A stretch of DNA of 64,000 nucleotides from a virus (lineage: Duplodnaviria; Caudoviricetes), in IMG/VR virus record IMGVR_UViG_3300014204_000111, positions 96,001 through 160,000 of that record; one strand, written 5' to 3'. Within the stretch, counting starts at the first letter, position 1. Each line of letters begins with the position of its first letter. Shown here one piece after another: positions 6,861 through 63,050 of this stretch. Both the position numbers and the translations under genes were made by a program. The notes beneath the pieces are model-generated. The model was not told the DNA's origin, made no database searches, and saw nothing but the letters and a program-made list of their open reading frames with translations.

Positions 6861-7082
6861 GAACTAATATACTTAAATTTCATCTTTATTTGATTCGTAG
6901 ACATTTATCATATTTGCGTCGTCCTATTTTATTGAATCATAGAATTGATGATTTATTTTTATTAAGAAGAATAAATGGTCATACTCCTTGGTTTACAATA
7001 GGATGTAATAAAGTATGGAATTATATAAAAGAACTTTCTAAGGAGACGGTTTAGAGTCTGAAATTTTGGGTATAATAAAGTC

Positions 7083-7164
7083 TAGTGCGGAGATTCAGGT
7101 GCAAGTCCTGACTGCCCAGGCGAAAACGCCAGCAGATAGTTTAAGTAGCAGAATACCGCCATTG
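7083..7164 (+). ncRNA. Circularly permuted tRNA-like RNA #2
   Basis: GCGG/CCGC closing stem; T arm TCAGG-TGCAAGT-CCTGA; CTGC/GCAG acceptor capped by GGCG-AAAA-CGCC; TA-GTTT-AAGTAGCA-GAAT D arm; own promoter. Confidence 0.8.
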
Positions 7165-7196
7165 TTTAGTTCTTTATCTTTTTGGGTATAATACAA

Positions 7197-7270
7197 TGCG
7201 GGATAGAGAAGTAGTTACTCGGAAGGCTCATACCCTTCAAACGTGGGTGCAAATCCCACTCCCGCAACCA
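7197..7270 (+). tRNA. tRNA-Met(CAT)
   Basis: Acceptor TGCGGGA/TCCCGCA-A-CCA; anticodon arm GAAGG-CTCATAC-CCTTC; T arm GTGGG-TGCAAAT-CCCAC. Initiator/elongator/Ile2 class not resolved. Confidence 0.9.
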
Positions 7271-7285
7271 TTTTGGAGGTTAATT

Positions 7286-7495
7286 ATGAATACTTCGCTA
7301 CTTAAAGAGAAAGTAAAAGAGTTAATCTCTTTATTTGAAGATATTAAGTGTGCTCAGAAAGAATATGAAGAAGAAATGCTTTTCTTATCTCTTTTTGCTG
7401 ATACCTTGAAATGGATGGATGAACATTCTCGTTCTGGAGCAGCAAAACAATTAAAATATATTTTTGAAAAAAGGATTGAAGGAAAGAGTTATTAA
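7286..7495 (+). CDS. Hypothetical protein
   Basis: GGAGG RBS then ATG 7286; the longer ORF-track start overlaps the tRNA. Confidence 0.7.
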   Translation: MNTSLLKEKVKELISLFEDIKCAQKEYEEEMLFLSLFADTLKWMDEHSRSGAAKQLKYIFEKRIEGKSY

Positions 7496-7507
7496 TTAGT
7501 TTAACAA

Positions 7508-7583
7508 TGAGAGTGTGGTGTAATCAGGTAGCACGCATTTTTTGGAAAAATGGGGCGCAGTTCAAATCTGACACTTTCAACCA
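7508..7583 (+). tRNA. tRNA-Pro(TGG), atypical T stem
   Basis: (T)GAGAGTG/CACTTTC(A)-A-CCA; D arm GTG..GGTAGCAC; CATTT-TTTGGAA-AAATG; TTCAAAT loop on a short stem. Confidence 0.75.
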
Positions 7584-7900
7584 TATTAATAGGAGAAAAA
7601 TGATAAATGAATTTACATTATGTTGGCAGATATGATAATGGAGTTTTTACTGAATCACCTGTAAAAGAAATGTCTAAAGAAATATTTTGTGATGGAATGG
7701 GTAGTCAATGGAATTATACTTTTCGAGATATAGATTTTTTCTTTTATAGACATGGTTTTAAGATAGAAGTAGAAGATGATTTGGCTATTACAAAAATTGG
7801 AGATATCATTTATTATTTCACAATAAGTTAATTTTTGAAAGCTTGTTTGAAGTCCTGTCTATTGGGTATAATAAAGAGTGAAGGAAGGAACTCCTTTACG

Positions 7901-7993
7901 AATAGGAGAAGCAGGATTCGATTTCCTGCCATCGCGGATGTGATGTAGTTTAGTCTGGAATACGTCTGCTAGCAAGACAGTAAAACACCTATT
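7901..7993 (+). ncRNA. Circularly permuted tRNA-like RNA #3 with expanded D loop
   Basis: AATAGG/CCTATT; GCAGGA-TTCGATT-TCCTGC; CATCGC-GGAT-GTGATG; TA-GTTT...AAAC enclosing a GTCT/AGAC hairpin. Confidence 0.8.
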
Positions 7994-8033
7994 TTGAAAA
8001 GCCTGTTTAGAATCCAGTAAAACGGGTATAATA

Positions 8034-8148
8034 GTGTTGTAAAGGTAAAGATGGAAGTTCGAATCTTTTCTAGTGCGTTAAAACCCTGCGGTTCTTGCGG
8101 GGGAGCGTTAGTAGCATAAATGGAATAATGCGTTACTGAATTTGACAC
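8034..8148 (+). ncRNA. Circularly permuted tRNA-like RNA #4
   Basis: GTGTTG/TGACAC plus GGTAA/TTACT interrupted terminal stem; GGAAG-TTCGAAT-CTTTT; CTAGTGC/GCGTTAG acceptor with inner hairpin; TA-GCAT-AAATGGAATA-ATGC D arm. Confidence 0.8.
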
Positions 8149-8269
8149 CCGCCACTCGCGGGACATAAGAATGATAAATATGTCATTTCTTTATAAAGAG
8201 GAAACTTCTTTCCTCTAGTTTTAACGGAAGGATTTACAAAGTAAATCCTTCCCTCTTGAACCTTGAAAA

Positions 8270-8925
8270 GTTTGTGTCTAATAAGTTAGAAGAGACGAGT
8301 TGGCTTGCTATTACTGCAAAGCAAGTGAGTGAACCAAAACAGTCTCATATTGAAATATGATAGAGTAAGGAGCTGGACTAAATGTTGCTGCTGGATGCGC
8401 GATATTTAGCCTTACTCATTGTAAGGACGATGTAACGTAGAAAGTACACGTACTCTTTAAGAGATTCGTAGGAAATCTTAGTTTTTCCGTCCAGTTTGAA
8501 AGCAATTGCTGTACCTGACCTGATAGTGGTAGGGGTATGAGGATAGCGAATCATATTTATGGAATCTTACAGATTGACGAATCTATAGGATAAACTATCT
8601 TACGTATGAATTGATTCGTCAATTCAAGAAGCTGCAACTGTTAGGTTGTAGGACTGGTGGGCGTATATAAGATTAAATGCCGCGACCAGTTTGTGATTTT
8701 ATAATCCGAAGAGGATGTCCACCTTCGTTAAAACCTGCGTTGTGTGTTGGCACAGTCAACAGAAAAGCGGACTAATCGTGGTTGACGTTTAAGAGGGCCG
8801 CGACTCTTTATTAACGCGGGTGAAAGCTCTTAAATTGAGAGTGATGGTGAATTATCTTTGGGATAAATTGTGACCATCTAGCGGCCAGCGCTGTGTTGGT
8901 AGATTATCTATCACACTACTGGATT
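8270..8925 (+). ncRNA. Large ornate structured RNA candidate (GOLLD/ROOL-like class, family unassigned)
   Basis: ORF-free, visibly GC-richer than flanks, nearly continuous helices and at least one pseudoknot (AGCTGGA 8371 / TCCAGTT 8490); next to tRNAs. Confidence 0.65.
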
Positions 8926-8958
8926 TTAATATATAATTTTTAGTATAATTTTTAGAAA

Positions 8959-9260
8959 AGATTCTTCTTTGTTTTGCAGTGGCCTTGTCCTAATCTGCTA
9001 GAAGAATCTGTATTTTACTTTGAAAAACTTTAGGATTCAAGTACCTAAGAAACTTAATGTTGTATGATTAGCAACTTCCTAAACGCAAACTTTGAAAATT
9101 TGCAAGAAAAAATAATCAAATGCCATTTCCTTGGCTCACTAATAACTAGATACTTTTAGTGAAAGGAAAGCCATTAGGACGTGTAAGGCTTTAATCTACG
9201 CCCTTAAAAATTGAATCATCGGTCGATTGATGGTGGAAAGACACAAAACCTACCTTTTTT
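8959..9260 (+). ncRNA. Further structured non-coding segment ending in a U tract
   Basis: Hairpin 8959-9009; TTTCCTT..CACTAA/TTAGTG..AAGGAAA; CATCGGTC/GATTGATG; GTG-GAAAGA-CAC; T6 near 9255. Confidence 0.5.
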
Positions 9261-10650
9261 AGAAAGATATTTAAACGGAGGGAAACAACCATCTAAAGAT
9301 AGATGGTTGTTTCATATTATATGAAATTTACCATATGTATTGTATTTGAAATTGAAGAAACTAGTCTTGAAGAAGCTAAGATTAGTGCAGAAGAATACAA
9401 AGAAACATTAGAAGAAGAAAGCAATGGAACAGATTATATTACTCCTGGCTCTTTATCTACTTATGTGACTCAAAAAACTTGTGAGTGTGGAGGAGAAATT
9501 GATTATTATTCTTGGGGAAGAGGAGGAGATTATATCTCCGAAGCTATATGTAAGTCATGTCACAAAGATTTTAATAAGGAATAATATATGTCTAAAAAAG
9601 AGAAGTTAATATATCTTGTGGCTAGAATATATTATGCAGCTAAATGGACAATTACATACAATTCTCTTGACCCATTTAAAGAATTTATTTATACAAGTAT
9701 ATGGGCAATTGATGCTGACCCTAATGGGATTTAAAATATTCTTATTATTAACAGCATGGGAAATGTCTTGTTGTTTTGATTTTTGTAATAGAAAATTAAA
9801 AACAGTTTATTATAAATATAGAGATTTAAATAGACATTGCCCAGGAATGAATATTAAATTAGTGCGTAGGAAAATTTATGAACGTATGCATAACAATCAA
9901 TAATAATATTACTTATGATTATTTTGATAAAAACGATATATATCTGTGGCTTTCTGGAAGGTTTCTATTTACAAAACCAGAAGTGAGACAGAATATAGCA
10001 TATGAAATAATAAATTATGGAAGTTCTGAGTTTTATCATTATAATGACCTTTATCATCATAATGACCATATAATAATAAAAACTACAATGATTAATTGCG
10101 ATTTAGAGATATGAAATGATTAATACAAAAGCTTTGTTTAATATAAGATTTTATGGTTTTTTACATCGTATTATGTATAAATACTTAGTAGCTACTAGAA
10201 TGAGTTGGAATGAAGAAGAAAAAATTAATGATTTTTATAGGAGACATTATCCTATAAGTTGGGGATATGATAGCATAAGTATATCTTACAAGTCTTTCGG
10301 TAGCTTAATTATAGATACTTTAATTATTATATTAGGTCTTATTACATTAATATTTATTAATGTAGAATCATATGATACAAAATAAAGCGTTATAAACATT
10401 ATCAATTTGACCGCAATAATACGATAAGAGCGCAATAATAGAGAATGATATAGAACTATACATAGTGATATATCGTTTTTTATTTACTCTTTATTGAAGG
10501 CTAAGTCTTGCTTAGGAGTCTATTTTACCCTTATAGCTGAAAGCGTAACATTTTAGTTAAATGATAAAAAGAGTATTTTATATATATTTAACACAGCTAG
10601 TGTTTAGAAGCTAAGACTTCGGGTATAATAGACCATTAGGAGATGATTTT

Positions 10651-11382
10651 ATGAGTAGAACAATTGTAATTCCTGACGTACATCATAGATGGAATTTAGC
10701 ATTAAAACCTTTAGAAATTACGGCTAATAGATATATCTTTTTAGGAGATTATTTTGATAATTTTGGTGATACATTAGAAGATACGGCTAATACTGTACGT
10801 CAACTTATTGAATTATCTAAGCGAGATGATGTTACTTTATTATTCGGTAATCATGATATTGGTTATCGTTTTAAAGGCTTTGAATGCTCTGGTTGGACAA
10901 AAGAAAAGTGCGATTTAATTAATAAAATGATGCCTGCCGAAGTATGGGAGAAGATGCAATTAGTTACTTATGTTGATGGATTTATTCTTTCTCATGCTGG
11001 ATTGGCTGAAAGTATTTTTAGTCATCCTATTGATGGCATAACACCAGAATATGTTGCTAAGTTATGCGTTGAAGGATTGGAACATGCTCAATTAGGTATT
11101 TATACTCCTGCTTTAACACCTGGACAAGCTAGGGGTGGTCGTCAAAGACAAGGTGGCCTTGATTGGTTAGACTTTAATCAAGAATTTGCACCAATTAAAG
11201 GAATAAACCAGATTTTCGGTCATACCCCAGCACCTTCCGCAAGACAAAGTAGCACCGAAGATTCAATTAATTGGTGTATTGACACTCATTCAAAAGGGTT
11301 TGTCATTCTTGAGAATGGCAAGGTCTTTCCACAAGAGATTAAAATGGTTGATTTTTTAAAAGATAAATTATCCGAAGTTTAA
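10651..11382 (+). CDS. Calcineurin-like metallophosphoesterase
   Basis: DVH, GDYFD, GNHD, SHAG and GHT motifs in canonical order. Confidence 0.92.
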   Translation: MSRTIVIPDVHHRWNLALKPLEITANRYIFLGDYFDNFGDTLEDTANTVRQLIELSKRDDVTLLFGNHDIGYRFKGFECSGWTKEKCDLINKMMPAEVWEKMQLVTYVDGFILSHAGLAESIFSHPIDGITPEYVAKLCVEGLEHAQLGIYTPALTPGQARGGRQRQGGLDWLDFNQEFAPIKGINQIFGHTPAPSARQSSTEDSINWCIDTHSKGFVILENGKVFPQEIKMVDFLKDKLSEV

Positions 11383-15444: not shown

Positions 15445-16056
15445 GAGAAAGTATAATGTTGACAATGGTTGAAAAGCGTGAAAAGTTGGCGCAACATGCG
15501 GTTGATAGTTATGATGAAGAGACAATATTCCAAACAGCTATGGAAGGCTGTATTGGTCTTAACTATCAAAGTGATGAAGAGATTAACCAACAATATAAAG
15601 ATATTTTCGGTGACGAAGAGAATGACGACGAAGATGCCGAAGAGGATGATTTTACCGAAGATTAACCTCATAAGTGTTTAGAAGCTCTTCATCCTGGGAA
15701 TAATTAAGAGTAATTCAAGATAGGAGACTAAGATGGACGAAGAGTTAGCAAAGGAAGTGGCGCTGCTATTGGCAGACCTAGCAGACCTGAGAATCCAGGT
15801 AAATGGTCTTAAACAACATCCTGATAATCGCTTTTGTGTTGAAGGTGTTATCGAGAAGTTCGCCAAGGTAGAAGATTATGACCGTTGGCTTAATGTCATT
15901 GCCAGGGATGAAGTGCTATTTTGGGCCTATCTTGACGAGAGAGAGAAGAGGATTTAACCAGAGTTTCACTTCCCAGATGTTTAAAAGCTCTGAGATTGGG
16001 AATAATAGAGAGTAAGGGAAAGAAACATCGAGTGAAAAGAATTTCCTTCCCCACGA

Positions 16057-16122
16057 AAGCGCCGAACGCCGTAAATATAGTTTCATGCGGCGACGAACAT
16101 AGTAAGAGTCTATCAGGCGTTC
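16057..16122 (+). ncRNA. GC-rich three-way-junction RNA element
   Basis: AGCGCC/GGCGTT, CGCCGTA/TGCGGCG and ATAG/CTAT, downstream of promoter 15998. Confidence 0.45.
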
Positions 16123-16428
16123 TTAATCTTTAATAAGGATATAACAATGAAGGTTCAAGTCCAATGGATTATGAGTGGCGAAATTGAGGTTGAGTCAGCT
16201 GATGCAGCTCGTAAAATGAGCCTGTACGAATTGGAGCAGGCTGGAGTTATTTACTTGGAAGATTCATTGGTTGTAGATAATGAGTCGGTTGAAGATGACG
16301 ACTTACCAGTATAAGTGAAATTAAGGTTAAATGAAGAGTAAAGGTGATTAGATTCTCTTCATCCGGGGTATAATCTAATCGGCAGTGGGAAAGACTACAT
16401 AATATTATATTCTTCGAGGTGGTTAATT

Positions 16429-25301: not shown

Positions 25302-25497
25302 GTTTGAAAGCAAAGACAATCAATAGTTTAGGGGTTAGAACGCCAGACAAGCATGGTCGCACCTGTAGATGGTAGGGCAGCTTCGGACGCTGCTTGATTG
25401 TTGGATGCTAAAGAAGGATGGTTGGCACTTACCAAAAGTCCGCCGCATTGAAAGGCTGCTAGAAGCGCCGTTTATGAGACTGTCTAATTAACAGTTA

Positions 25498-25582
25498 GCA
25501 AGGAAACGAGAGTGCAATCCTCTCTGCTGATTTAGCAAGTTGCAAATTGCCTTAAGCATCGTCTAGTAGAAGGACGCCTTGT
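25498..25582 (+). ncRNA. Circularly permuted tRNA-like module #7
   Basis: GCAAGG/CCTTGT; GAGAG-TGCAATC-CTCTC; TGCT/AGCA with inner hairpin; TC-GTCT-AGTAGAA-GGAC D arm. Confidence 0.8.
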
Positions 25583-25614
25583 GTTTGAAATCTGGTGGAT
25601 TGGGTATAATAAGA

Positions 25615-26285
25615 GTGAGGCAAGGTTCAGGTGAGTAGCTTGGTAAAACATTGGGAATCAACCATAGATAACCTATCTTAAGTTCTTTTAAAATAGTTGG
25701 TATGTTTTGTTCTCATGATGAAGAGCAAAGAGATACGGATATACAGGAGAAGTTCGACTCTTTTCCTCTTGTTCTTCATCTTTTAACTTGATAACTTATG
25801 AGTCTTATAGCCCTTATAATTGGTGAGTCCTGTTATGTATTAGGGAATTAGAAGTAAGACTCTTTTAACTTGATAATTTCATATAAGAGTCTCGCTAGAC
25901 TTAGACCCGGTGGGTTTAAGGGAAATAATTAGAGATTCTTCAGATTACGGGAAGAGAGGATTGGACTTGTATGGAGCAGCTTAACAGTACCCTAATTACA
26001 GGTTCCCTCTCTTTTCTCTGGTTAAATTGTTTGCAAACCCGTACTAACTGGGATAAGTTAGGATGATAACAACATTACAGTTAAATCTTAAAGTCTCATT
26101 GTTAAAGAGCAAGGAGAAATGATATGCGAACCTTCACCTAATTGGTTCTGAAAGACAAAGATTTTAATACATATAAATATAAATTGAATTGTTCGAGTTA
26201 CCTATGTGAAATTCAGGTGGCCTCTTTCTTAGAACTTGTTGCAGTGGTCTTATCCTAATCTGCTGTTCTAAGGGAGAGGTTTTTG
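25615..26285 (+). ncRNA. Non-coding array of long hairpins including a T-loop minihelix (25717-25780)
   Basis: GATGAAGAGCAA/TTGTTCTTCATC with GAGAAG-TTCGACT-CTTTTC; GAGTCTTAT/GTAAGACTC; GAGTCTC/GAGATTC; hairpin 26220-26280; no ORF of 60 aa or more. Confidence 0.55.
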
Positions 26286-26357
26286 CTATTATTTAACCTA
26301 AAACATGTTTGTTTGCTCTTCATCCGGGTATAATAAGGCATCTAAGAAACAGGGAGC

Positions 26358-26816: not shown

Positions 26817-27002
26817 TGTTTGAAACCTGAGCTAACGGGTATAATAAAGCATCAAAGGAGAGAGATGGCTAAATTCTGTTGTGAGTGTGGAGAAAAGGTT
26901 AATGATTATGAGTGGGATGAAGTATTAGGAGCTTATTTCGGTTATTGCTCCGAGTGTGACGAAGACCATCTTGTACATTGAAATATCTCAGTAAGTCTAC
27001 AT

Positions 27003-27110
27003 CCTTGCGTAGTTGAAAGAGAATAACGGTCTATAATCTCTGACGGGTAATAGATGCATTAAAACCGTGTATATTATAGAACATTGTGGGTGCAAGTCCT
27101 ACCGTAAGGT
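27003..27110 (+). ncRNA. tRNA-like RNA with long insertion in the anticodon arm, no encoded CCA
   Basis: CCTTGCG/CGTAAGG acceptor; TA-GTTG-AAAGAGAA-TAAC; TCTATAAT/ATTATAGA enclosing ~34 nt; GTGGG-TGCAAGT-CCTAC. Confidence 0.75.
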
Positions 27111-27464
27111 CTTAATTTCTAACTGAGAAGTGTTTAAAACTTCGTTACTAGGGTATAATACAATCGAGAGAGAAACTCTCTTTGCTCTTAATCTTGGAGA
27201 AAAAGATGTACGCCACTAAGAACTATAAGACTAAGAAAGAGTTTAAAGCTGCTGTTGCTGAGAAAGATGTCGAAGTCTATCAGCCTAACCAGATGTTTGA
27301 AGTCAAGGCTGGCCCAAAGGTTATCTGTGGCCCTCACGCTCCTGCAATGCATACGTGGTACGCTAATGCTAGGGTTATCGAGAGAGATGGCAGTTTCTAT
27401 GTTGAGAAGGGTAGCAAGGTTGTTTAGGAAGTGACCCACTTGGGTATAATAAGATGAGTGAACC

Positions 27465-61921: not shown

Positions 61922-63050
61922 ATCCAGTCCTAATCCTGGCTGGTCAGATGATACTTACGAAGAAGACGATGATTCTGCACGTCAAGAGGCAGAAGAGTTA
62001 AGTTTAGGTCAAGATACTCCTTCTCAAGCAACTAAAAGATTTCTTCCAGCAGAAGGTCATGCTGATGGACAACATCCATATTTAAGTAACCCAATTCATT
62101 CTTCATTCTCTCATTTACAACAATATCTTCCTGAACTTAATCAGCATTTAAATGCATACTTACAGCAAAATCCTAATTTTGACCCAAAGAATATACTTGC
62201 AGTTAGAGGAGCGGCATTAGAAGCTCTTCATCATCATCATACTCTAAATCACCTAAATCCTACGCCTCCTCCGAATATACCTCAAATAGTTCAACAAGCA
62301 GGAGCGCTTATCCAAGGTCATCTTGATTCAGAAAAGAAAAATGTACAACAATCTTCACAATCTTCATTAAGTAATCAAACTTGGGATAAGAATGATACAA
62401 CAGATATTTTCGGTAAACCTACTTGGTTCCCACAACAAAAAGGTCACGGAGGTATGGGAGAATTTTCTTCAAACTATATAGCTCCTTCAATGAATAAGTC
62501 TCTTAATTCTTTTGTCCAAATATCTATGCTTAAAGGTATGCTAGATAATTTACACACTAAACATAATTACGGACACGGAGGAGAAATAGATGTATTAAGC
62601 GGAAAAACTGTTAATCCAAAAGATTTACCACAACCTGTTCAACCAATGCCATCTTCTCCTATTGCTGTACCTAATGACCCTTGGAAAGAGGATAGGGAAG
62701 CACAAAAGTATGAGAAAAAGACTTTGCCACCTCATTCAGGAGATGGTTGGGGTTTAGCAGATGATATTAGAGGAAATTTAACTGATGAACAAGAGATGGA
62801 TGATGCTAATAATGACCCTAATAATGGACTAGCTCCAGAATTTAGGACAAAAACTGTTCAATCAGACCCTAAGCAATCTCAAAGAATACAATCATTTCCT
62901 GGCAATTTATATCCTAGTAATCCATCTATGGTTCCTTCGACTCCTGCACCACAAGTATATAATCCCAATGTTAAACCAAGTAATGTAGATATACTCCCCG
63001 GATTAAGAGCAATGATAGAAAGTGCTAAAGTAGGACAGGCTGGTAAATAA
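61914..63050 (+). CDS. Startless +1-frame continuation of the 61040 gene (includes ORF 62454-63050)
   Basis: Frame open 61872-63050 with no ATG/GTG/TTG before 62454; reads IAKSSPNPGW... immediately after the A run. Confidence 0.7.
   Translation: MAKSSPNPGWSDDTYEEDDDSARQEAEELSLGQDTPSQATKRFLPAEGHADGQHPYLSNPIHSSFSHLQQYLPELNQHLNAYLQQNPNFDPKNILAVRGAALEALHHHHTLNHLNPTPPPNIPQIVQQAGALIQGHLDSEKKNVQQSSQSSLSNQTWDKNDTTDIFGKPTWFPQQKGHGGMGEFSSNYIAPSMNKSLNSFVQISMLKGMLDNLHTKHNYGHGGEIDVLSGKTVNPKDLPQPVQPMPSSPIAVPNDPWKEDREAQKYEKKTLPPHSGDGWGLADDIRGNLTDEQEMDDANNDPNNGLAPEFRTKTVQSDPKQSQRIQSFPGNLYPSNPSMVPSTPAPQVYNPNVKPSNVDILPGLRAMIESAKVGQAGK

Follow-up and report, generated by a model that had tools for sequence, protein, structure and literature searches.

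Does an ORF-free stretch of phage DNA next to tRNA genes encode a large structured RNA and, if so, where does this RNA begin and end, is it a single molecule, and to which family does it belong? Large "ornate" phage RNAs located beside tRNA genes, i.e., GOLLD, ROOL, and T5 RNAX, are abundant, and the structures of some have been solved. To our knowledge, none of them has a known function. The region considered here (positions 8270–8925, hereafter the body) most likely makes a non-coding RNA. At the sequence level, the locus is non-coding, with raised GC, a better fold than controls, a promoter/terminator-like layout, and a permuted tRNA-like head, and it matches no known family. The preferred reading, held with about even confidence, is that of a real promoter-driven non-coding unit on the plus strand (approximately 8040–8925), in which a stable structured body lies downstream of the permuted tRNA-like head; its context is like that of RNAX, GOLLD, and ROOL, and it would be a member of none of them. 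The features of the locus are listed in Table 1.

Table 1. Features of the locus, in window coordinates.
Feature	Position	Strand	Basis or remark
Predicted phage promoter TGTTTAGA...GGGTATAAT, class TGTTTaGA-N12-GGGTATAAT	8004–8032	+	Nearest promoter upstream of the body; predicted start ~8039–8040
3′ part of the circularly permuted tRNA-like module	8040–8077	+	ARAGORN on rotated sub-windows
27-nt spacer between the acceptor strands	8078–8104	+	Hairpin CCTGC-GGTTCTT-GCGGG (8085–8101)
5′ part of the permuted tRNA-like module	8105–8146	+	ARAGORN and pairing read from the sequence
Four linker hairpins	8148–8162, 8171–8186, 8197–8216, 8227–8251 (span 8148–8251)	+	Pair probabilities
Helix-dense body, ORF-free and GC-enriched	8270–8925	+	~12 mostly local hairpins and a few uncertain long-range helices
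GAGAC/GTCTC	8292–8296/8342–8346	+	Sequence
GAGTAAGG/CCTTACTC	8363–8370/8410–8417	+	Outer helix around 8378–8388/8399–8409
GACTGGT/ACCAGTT	8652–8658/8685–8691	+	Sequence
CGAAG/CTTCG		+	Sequence
GTCAAC/GTTGAC	8755–8760/8781–8786	+	Sequence
TTTAAGAG/CTCTTAAA	8788–8795/8827–8834	+	Outer helix around CCGCG/CGCGG
GATGGT/ACCATC	8843–8848/8873–8878	+	Sequence
Terminator-like hairpin CCAG...CTGG (8886–8922), enclosing 8893–8916, then ATTTTAAT	8886–8927	+	Fold −10.5 kcal/mol; T-run directly after
Sigma-70-like promoter ATCACA-16-TATAAT (8910–8937) and tandem TATAATTTTTAG ×2	8910–8955	+	

Genomic Setting

The source is an IMG/VR virus record of 220,861 bp that carries direct terminal repeats, and the window, i.e., the whole 64,000-nt stretch analyzed, comprises its bases 96001–160000. 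The phage genome has a GC content of 0.317 and contains 20 tRNA genes according to ARAGORN. Another assembly of this phage is available (ENA ERZ27247350, 220,900 bp); over 17.6 kb, the two differ by 1 base, and the sequence of the 8270–8925 RNA is identical in both. The phage is effectively a singleton, without a close relative in the collections reached. Its portal protein has its closest relative (64% identical) on a 5.7-kb contig and is 52% identical to that of the closest large contig, G005. Among 5.8 billion protein clusters, the 93-aa neighbor protein and the other flanking proteins each stand as singletons.

The genes neighboring the body are uniformly oriented on the plus strand. One of them, at 10651–11382, encodes a protein of 243 aa with a Pfam Metallophos match and a weak match to a PHROG RNA ligase family. 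tRNA-Met and tRNA-Pro lie near the non-coding region, at 7197–7583; together with the adjoining tRNA-like module described below, they bear out the tRNA neighborhood noted in the original prediction. Four more ORF-free islands are present in the window (15958–16428, 25363–26341, 26817–27181, and 61922–62453). These show GC contents of 0.38–0.39 versus 0.32 for the genome and are likely to be additional ncRNA loci.

Coding Content, Composition, and Folding of the Body

As originally predicted, the body is free of ORFs: none of at least 60 aa was found in 8270–8925 under any of three genetic codes (code 11, code 4, or TAG=Q). The ORF-free gap in full extends from 7835 to 9302. A single Shine-Dalgarno-led micro-ORF (17 aa, 8382–8435) was considered as a gene and judged to be a chance occurrence; it sits inside a strong hairpin. 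No family was matched in a Pfam search of six ORF fragments from the region. The GC content of the body is 0.407, versus 0.317 for the genome and approximately 0.30 for both flanks.

The minimum free energy of the plus strand of the body is −202.9 kcal/mol, which corresponds to a z-score of −4.95 relative to dinucleotide shuffles (−4.93 in a repeat). The body therefore folds better than the shuffled controls against which the original prediction proposed to set it. For 21 coding controls of the same length from the same phage, the mean z-score is −1.06 (sd 1.23, minimum −3.9); the body is more extreme than all of them, although one control nonetheless reached −3.9. When the body is folded in halves, z-scores of −3.0 (8270–8600) and −4.1 (8600–8925) are obtained, and the value is −7.3 for 8147–8925, which includes the linker hairpins. 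The structure excess of the body is thus real but moderate. The minus strand gives a z-score of −4.6, near that of the plus strand, and its weaker absolute energy is compositional. Since the two z-scores are so similar, folding does not discriminate between the strands, and the plus strand was assigned from the promoters and the orientation of the genes.

Promoters and Boundaries of the Unit

The window contains 31 copies of the element GGGTATAAT (30 on the plus strand), versus an expectation of 0.7 (an excess of about 40-fold). When the contexts of these copies are aligned, a common upstream TGTTT(a/g)GA box appears at a distance of 12 nt. The composite motif TGTTT(a/g)GA-N12-GGGTATAAT is, as judged from this arrangement, a predicted promoter class of the phage. 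It spans positions 2391–33382 of the window and has 43 + 3 copies in the genome; it is rare in two distant relatives read whole (2 and 8 copies). Many small genes and non-coding units are predicted to be driven by this class.

Two copies, at 7864 and 8024, are found near the region. No phage-class promoter is present between 8033 and 10620, and hence none is internal to the body. An acceptable sigma-70-like promoter ahead of 8270 was likewise found neither by a promoter scan nor by reading of 8255–8291. The original prediction had begun the RNA at 8270, and with no promoter directly before it, this 5′ boundary proves to be wrong as the start of a gene. Because no promoter is nearer than that at 8004–8032, the body would most simply be the downstream part of a transcript starting at approximately 8040. 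Four hairpins link the head to the body, and hairpin energies of −7.8, −8.2, and −12.1 kcal/mol were computed among them. One of them, 8197–8216, is followed by AGTTTTAA and constitutes a weak terminator-like site, which could part the head from the body and leave the latter without a recognizable promoter.

On the 3′ side, hairpin 8886–8922 with the subsequent ATTTTAAT is the probable end of the unit, and it is below the threshold of a consensus terminator scan. The sigma-70-like promoter and the tandem TATAATTTTTAG elements probably start the next non-coding unit, 8960–9313. Considered from 8930, behind whose tandem TATAATTTTTAG boxes it lies, this next unit (8930–9313) is AT-rich (GC 0.315) and weakly structured, and it ends in a strong 14-bp hairpin (9282–9313) that abuts the start of the following gene. 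Its hairpin 8974–8999 matches 26239–26264 (92% over 26 nt).

These boundaries bear on whether the body has a function of its own. It might instead be a long structured leader or spacer, made by read-through from the 8024 promoter to the small genes from 9321 onward, or a trailer cut off the tRNA-like module. The genes at 9321–10385 need an upstream promoter because 8033–10620 contains no phage-class copy, and the sub-threshold strength of the terminator-like hairpin is compatible with read-through. Yet, the sigma-70-like promoter at 8910–8937 can serve the downstream genes, and in so densely coding a genome, a functionless spacer would hardly be expected to comprise 650 nt with a GC content nine points above the background and a fold far beyond that of controls. 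This reading is therefore regarded as unlikely.

A Permuted tRNA-like Module at the Head of the Unit

The preferred reading, a promoter-driven unit starting at approximately 8040, gains a further element from the sequence ahead of the linker hairpins. The transcription start expected from the 8024-copy promoter coincides exactly with the beginning of a circularly permuted tRNA-like module. Its parts are arranged in the order T arm, acceptor 3′ strand, spacer, acceptor 5′ strand, and D arm, and no CCA is encoded. The T arm (8053–8069) reads GGAAG-TTCGAAT-CTTTT and is followed by the acceptor 3′ strand (8070–8076) and the discriminator G8077. Beyond the spacer, the acceptor 5′ strand GCGTTAG (8105–8111) pairs with 8070–8076 at 7/7 positions, including a G3.U70 pair (G8107.U8074). 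The D arm occupies 8114–8131. The remnant of the anticodon arm is ambiguous, and its call varies with where the ends are joined. In this geometry, the ~650-nt body would leave the tRNA-like head on its anticodon or variable side.

The module was identified with ARAGORN on rotated sub-windows, with an artificially permuted tRNA-Met as the positive control. At the default threshold, all of the junction-crossing calls (99/99) had their 5′ end at 8105, and no ARAGORN call was obtained when the same rotation test was applied to two coding control stretches. By analogy with tRNA geometry, the acceptor spacer 8078–8104 would be the expected cut site for RNase P or 3′-end processing.

A second candidate for a permuted tRNA-like module is located at 7876–7954, behind the promoter copy at 7864–7872, and is called only at ARAGORN -ps90. 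It has a T arm of the sequence CAGGA-TTCGATT-TCCTG, an acceptor stem capped with a loop of 4 nt (GGAT), and an anticodon loop of 8 nt with the anticodon call "acga". The head and the body also have one sequence element in common: CGTTAAAACC(C)TGCG(G)TT is found at 8076–8096, in the head spacer, and again at 8726–8745. The 10-mer of this element has only 3 copies in the 221-kb genome.

Helices of the Body

The helices listed in the original prediction are all present in the sequence at their proposed positions (Table 1). The same holds for the proposed mutually exclusive pairing, in which helix 8572–8583/8613–8624 competes with the GAATTGA-TTCG-TCAATTC (UUCG) hairpin. As for a proposed pseudoknot between 8371 and 8490, the complementarity does exist (8371–8378/8489–8496), but an 8-nt match is estimated to occur by chance approximately 0.25 times in 650 nt. 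The TGAAA(G) motifs of the original prediction are, like this pseudoknot, putative elements.

At pair probabilities above 0.6, about a dozen helices are retained, nearly all of which are local hairpins of 18–85 nt. Long-range helices, e.g., 8489–8495/8918–8924, alter when the 5′ end is shifted from 8255 to 8040. The original description of an "ornate" structured RNA of ~650 nt therefore stands in part: the body is helix-dense and unusually foldable, but with mostly local hairpins and end-dependent long-range helices, a single-molecule fold is unsupported.

This predominance of local helices, together with the dependence of the long-range pairs on the chosen ends, agrees with a different reading, namely, a polycistronic string in which small, separate modules (hairpins or tRNA mimics) are processed or act independently rather than as one large RNA. 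Moreover, the adjacent hairpin at 8960–9010 has a 26-nt match in the 25363–26341 island (26239–26264). Against this reading, no internal repeats or shared modules were found within 8270–8925, and apart from the neighboring 8974–8999 hairpin, no module is held in common with the other non-coding islands of the phage. Nor did ARAGORN on rotated 8140–9320 detect any additional permuted tRNA module inside the body or next to it, no small-RNA family was matched at E ≤ 10, and phage-class promoters are absent from the interior. The modular string is a possibility to be taken seriously, though with clearly less than even confidence. It is considered the main rival of the preferred reading, followed by the leader or trailer; a missed known family is unlikely.

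Pairing of the body with the tRNAs of the phage itself was also considered. The longest contiguous antisense pairing is no better than that of shuffles; z-scores from duplexfold were set aside, as the duplexes contained giant loops.

Comparison with Known RNA Families

The search against Rfam suggested along with the original prediction was performed with Rfam 15, and at the gathering score, it returned tRNA-Met alone. At E ≤ 10 over 7000–9400 (2.4 kb), only tRNA-Pro was added, the remaining matches being at chance level. With the laxest filters, 8230–8940 (711 nt) gave three chance-level snoRNA/miRNA matches at E ≤ 10. Neither GOLLD (RF01998) nor ROOL (RF03087) had a covariance-model match even at E ≤ 10, and the Rfam 15 models of OLE, HEARO, RNase P, group I/II introns, tmRNA, and small ribozymes were silent as well. 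Membership in GOLLD or ROOL, at which the original prediction had hinted, thus fails, whereas the absence of any Rfam 15 family match to the body is in line with its suggestion that the family may be new.

GOLLD and ROOL are phage RNAs near tRNA islands, and GOLLD sometimes has tRNAs within it (10.1101/2024.12.08.627333). The context here is GOLLD-like, with a phage record, tRNA-Met and tRNA-Pro nearby, and a unit length of 656–885 nt. Like GOLLD and ROOL, the present RNA would be phage-encoded, ORF-free, 600–900 nt long, located beside tRNA genes, and richer in GC than the genome. Unlike them, it has no covariance-model match and no covariation-backed fold, and its head is a permuted tRNA-like module instead of a normal tRNA. 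GOLLD and ROOL form RNA-only multimers, and such assembly would be speculative for the present RNA.

T5 rnaX is annotated in GenBank AY543070.1 (40848–41566) as "stable RNA with unknown functions". An nhmmer profile built from 8 members, T5 rnaX and seven diverse relatives, recovered T5 at an E-value of 6.5e-137 and matched nothing in 7835–9320; its best matches in this genome have E-values of 0.9 or worse, and all lie outside 7835–9320. Both RNAX and the predicted unit are ORF-free, approximately 600–900 nt in length, promoter-driven, and situated in the tRNA region of a large phage, joined to a tRNA gene in the case of RNAX (whose phage is lytic) and to a tRNA-like module here. However, the tRNA partner of RNAX is a normal tRNA-Arg located downstream, whereas here, a permuted tRNA-like module lies upstream of the RNA.

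The order of elements, i.e., a T arm and an acceptor 3′ strand, a spacer, an acceptor 5′ strand, and then a long structured RNA, is also that of two-piece tmRNA, and the G3.U70 pair is shared. In contrast to two-piece tmRNA, the module has a true D arm, a discriminator G, and no CCA, and the body is about twice the length of a tmRNA. A tmRNA was rejected, as a tag-like C-terminus is encoded by none of the reading frames and the Rfam tmRNA families are silent. ARAGORN -m was negative at default and gave a doubtful call only at -ps80 on artificially rotated sequence. The tRNA-like module of YrlA-type Y RNAs (RF02553) likewise has its acceptor stem closed and its free ends close to the anticodon side. 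Yet, there is no Rfam match to them, and Y RNAs are ~100–200 nt long and lack a 650-nt tail.

These comparisons bear on a further reading, in which the models overlooked a divergent member of a catalogued family (GOLLD, ROOL, RNAX, RNase P, tmRNA, or a group I/II intron). The phage and tRNA-island context would fit GOLLD and ROOL (bioRxiv 10.1101/2024.12.08.627333), and the size is similar. Against this, Rfam 15 at its laxest filters gave only chance matches on the 711 nt (E 0.6–9.7), the 8-member RNAX profile had no match in the region, and neither a tmRNA by ARAGORN default nor a tag-like frame was found. A missed member is accordingly very improbable, and this reading is already largely refuted.

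Proposed Mechanism

Returning to the promoter-driven unit with a tRNA-like head, we infer its transcription, the co-transcription of head and body, and the processing, stability, and function of the RNA from the layout of the sequence. Transcription would proceed from the 8004–8032 promoter, first through the tRNA-like head, then through the four linker hairpins and the ~650-nt body, to the terminator-like hairpin. The head may recruit tRNA-processing enzymes of the host, with RNase P and 3′ trimming acting in the acceptor spacer. Such processing would define the ends of the RNA and stabilize it, so that the GC-rich body might persist as a stable structured RNA. The body could then act as a scaffold or decoy in a contest between phage and host over tRNA and translation.

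A bolder version is a giant two-piece tRNA-headed RNA, in which a cut in the spacer would leave an acceptor piece of ~38 nt, with G3.U70 and possibly chargeable with alanine, paired to an 820-nt structured body. This version is speculative and quite improbable. If true, it would represent a new class of phage RNA that combines tRNA/tmRNA mimicry with a GOLLD-sized scaffold. One more unrelated example would strengthen the view that ornate phage RNAs work in the arena of tRNA and translation, the present one being set in a phage rich in predicted tRNA mimics and RNA-repair genes. In a fused unit of this kind, the head and the body would be separable experimentally.

Homologue Searches

No homologue of the RNA was identified by blastn against 50,697 GenBank phage records or by nhmmer over 2.06 Mb of collected loci. 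None was found either in the neighborhoods of genes related to the NADAR-like gene or to the 243-aa gene (10651–11382), and the same is true of the whole records of four NADAR-gene loci. Two large genomes were read whole, again with no RNA homologue: the portal relative G005 (202 kb, IMGVR_UViG_3300037067_013225) and G006 (211 kb), which was chosen by a promoter-motif scan, contains the promoter motif twice, and has only 6 ORFs in common with the phage. Exact-motif scans yielded nothing in IMG/VR (two scans), 65 matches in JGI metagenomes, all of which are GC-rich chance matches, and 2 matches in GTDB genomes, both inside a Sphingomonadales coding gene. As no homologue was found and the phage is a singleton, covariation cannot support any helix. 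At present, the value of the locus is that of a lead, i.e., an orphan without comparative support.

A separate observation concerns G005, in which a 912-nt ORF-poor gap (L033 17802–18713) is present. It is unrelated to the body and consists of two promoter-like copies of CGCTTGACTTA(T/C)GCGGG(A/G)AATCGTG(C/T)TATACTTATCTTAAGTC with structured leaders.
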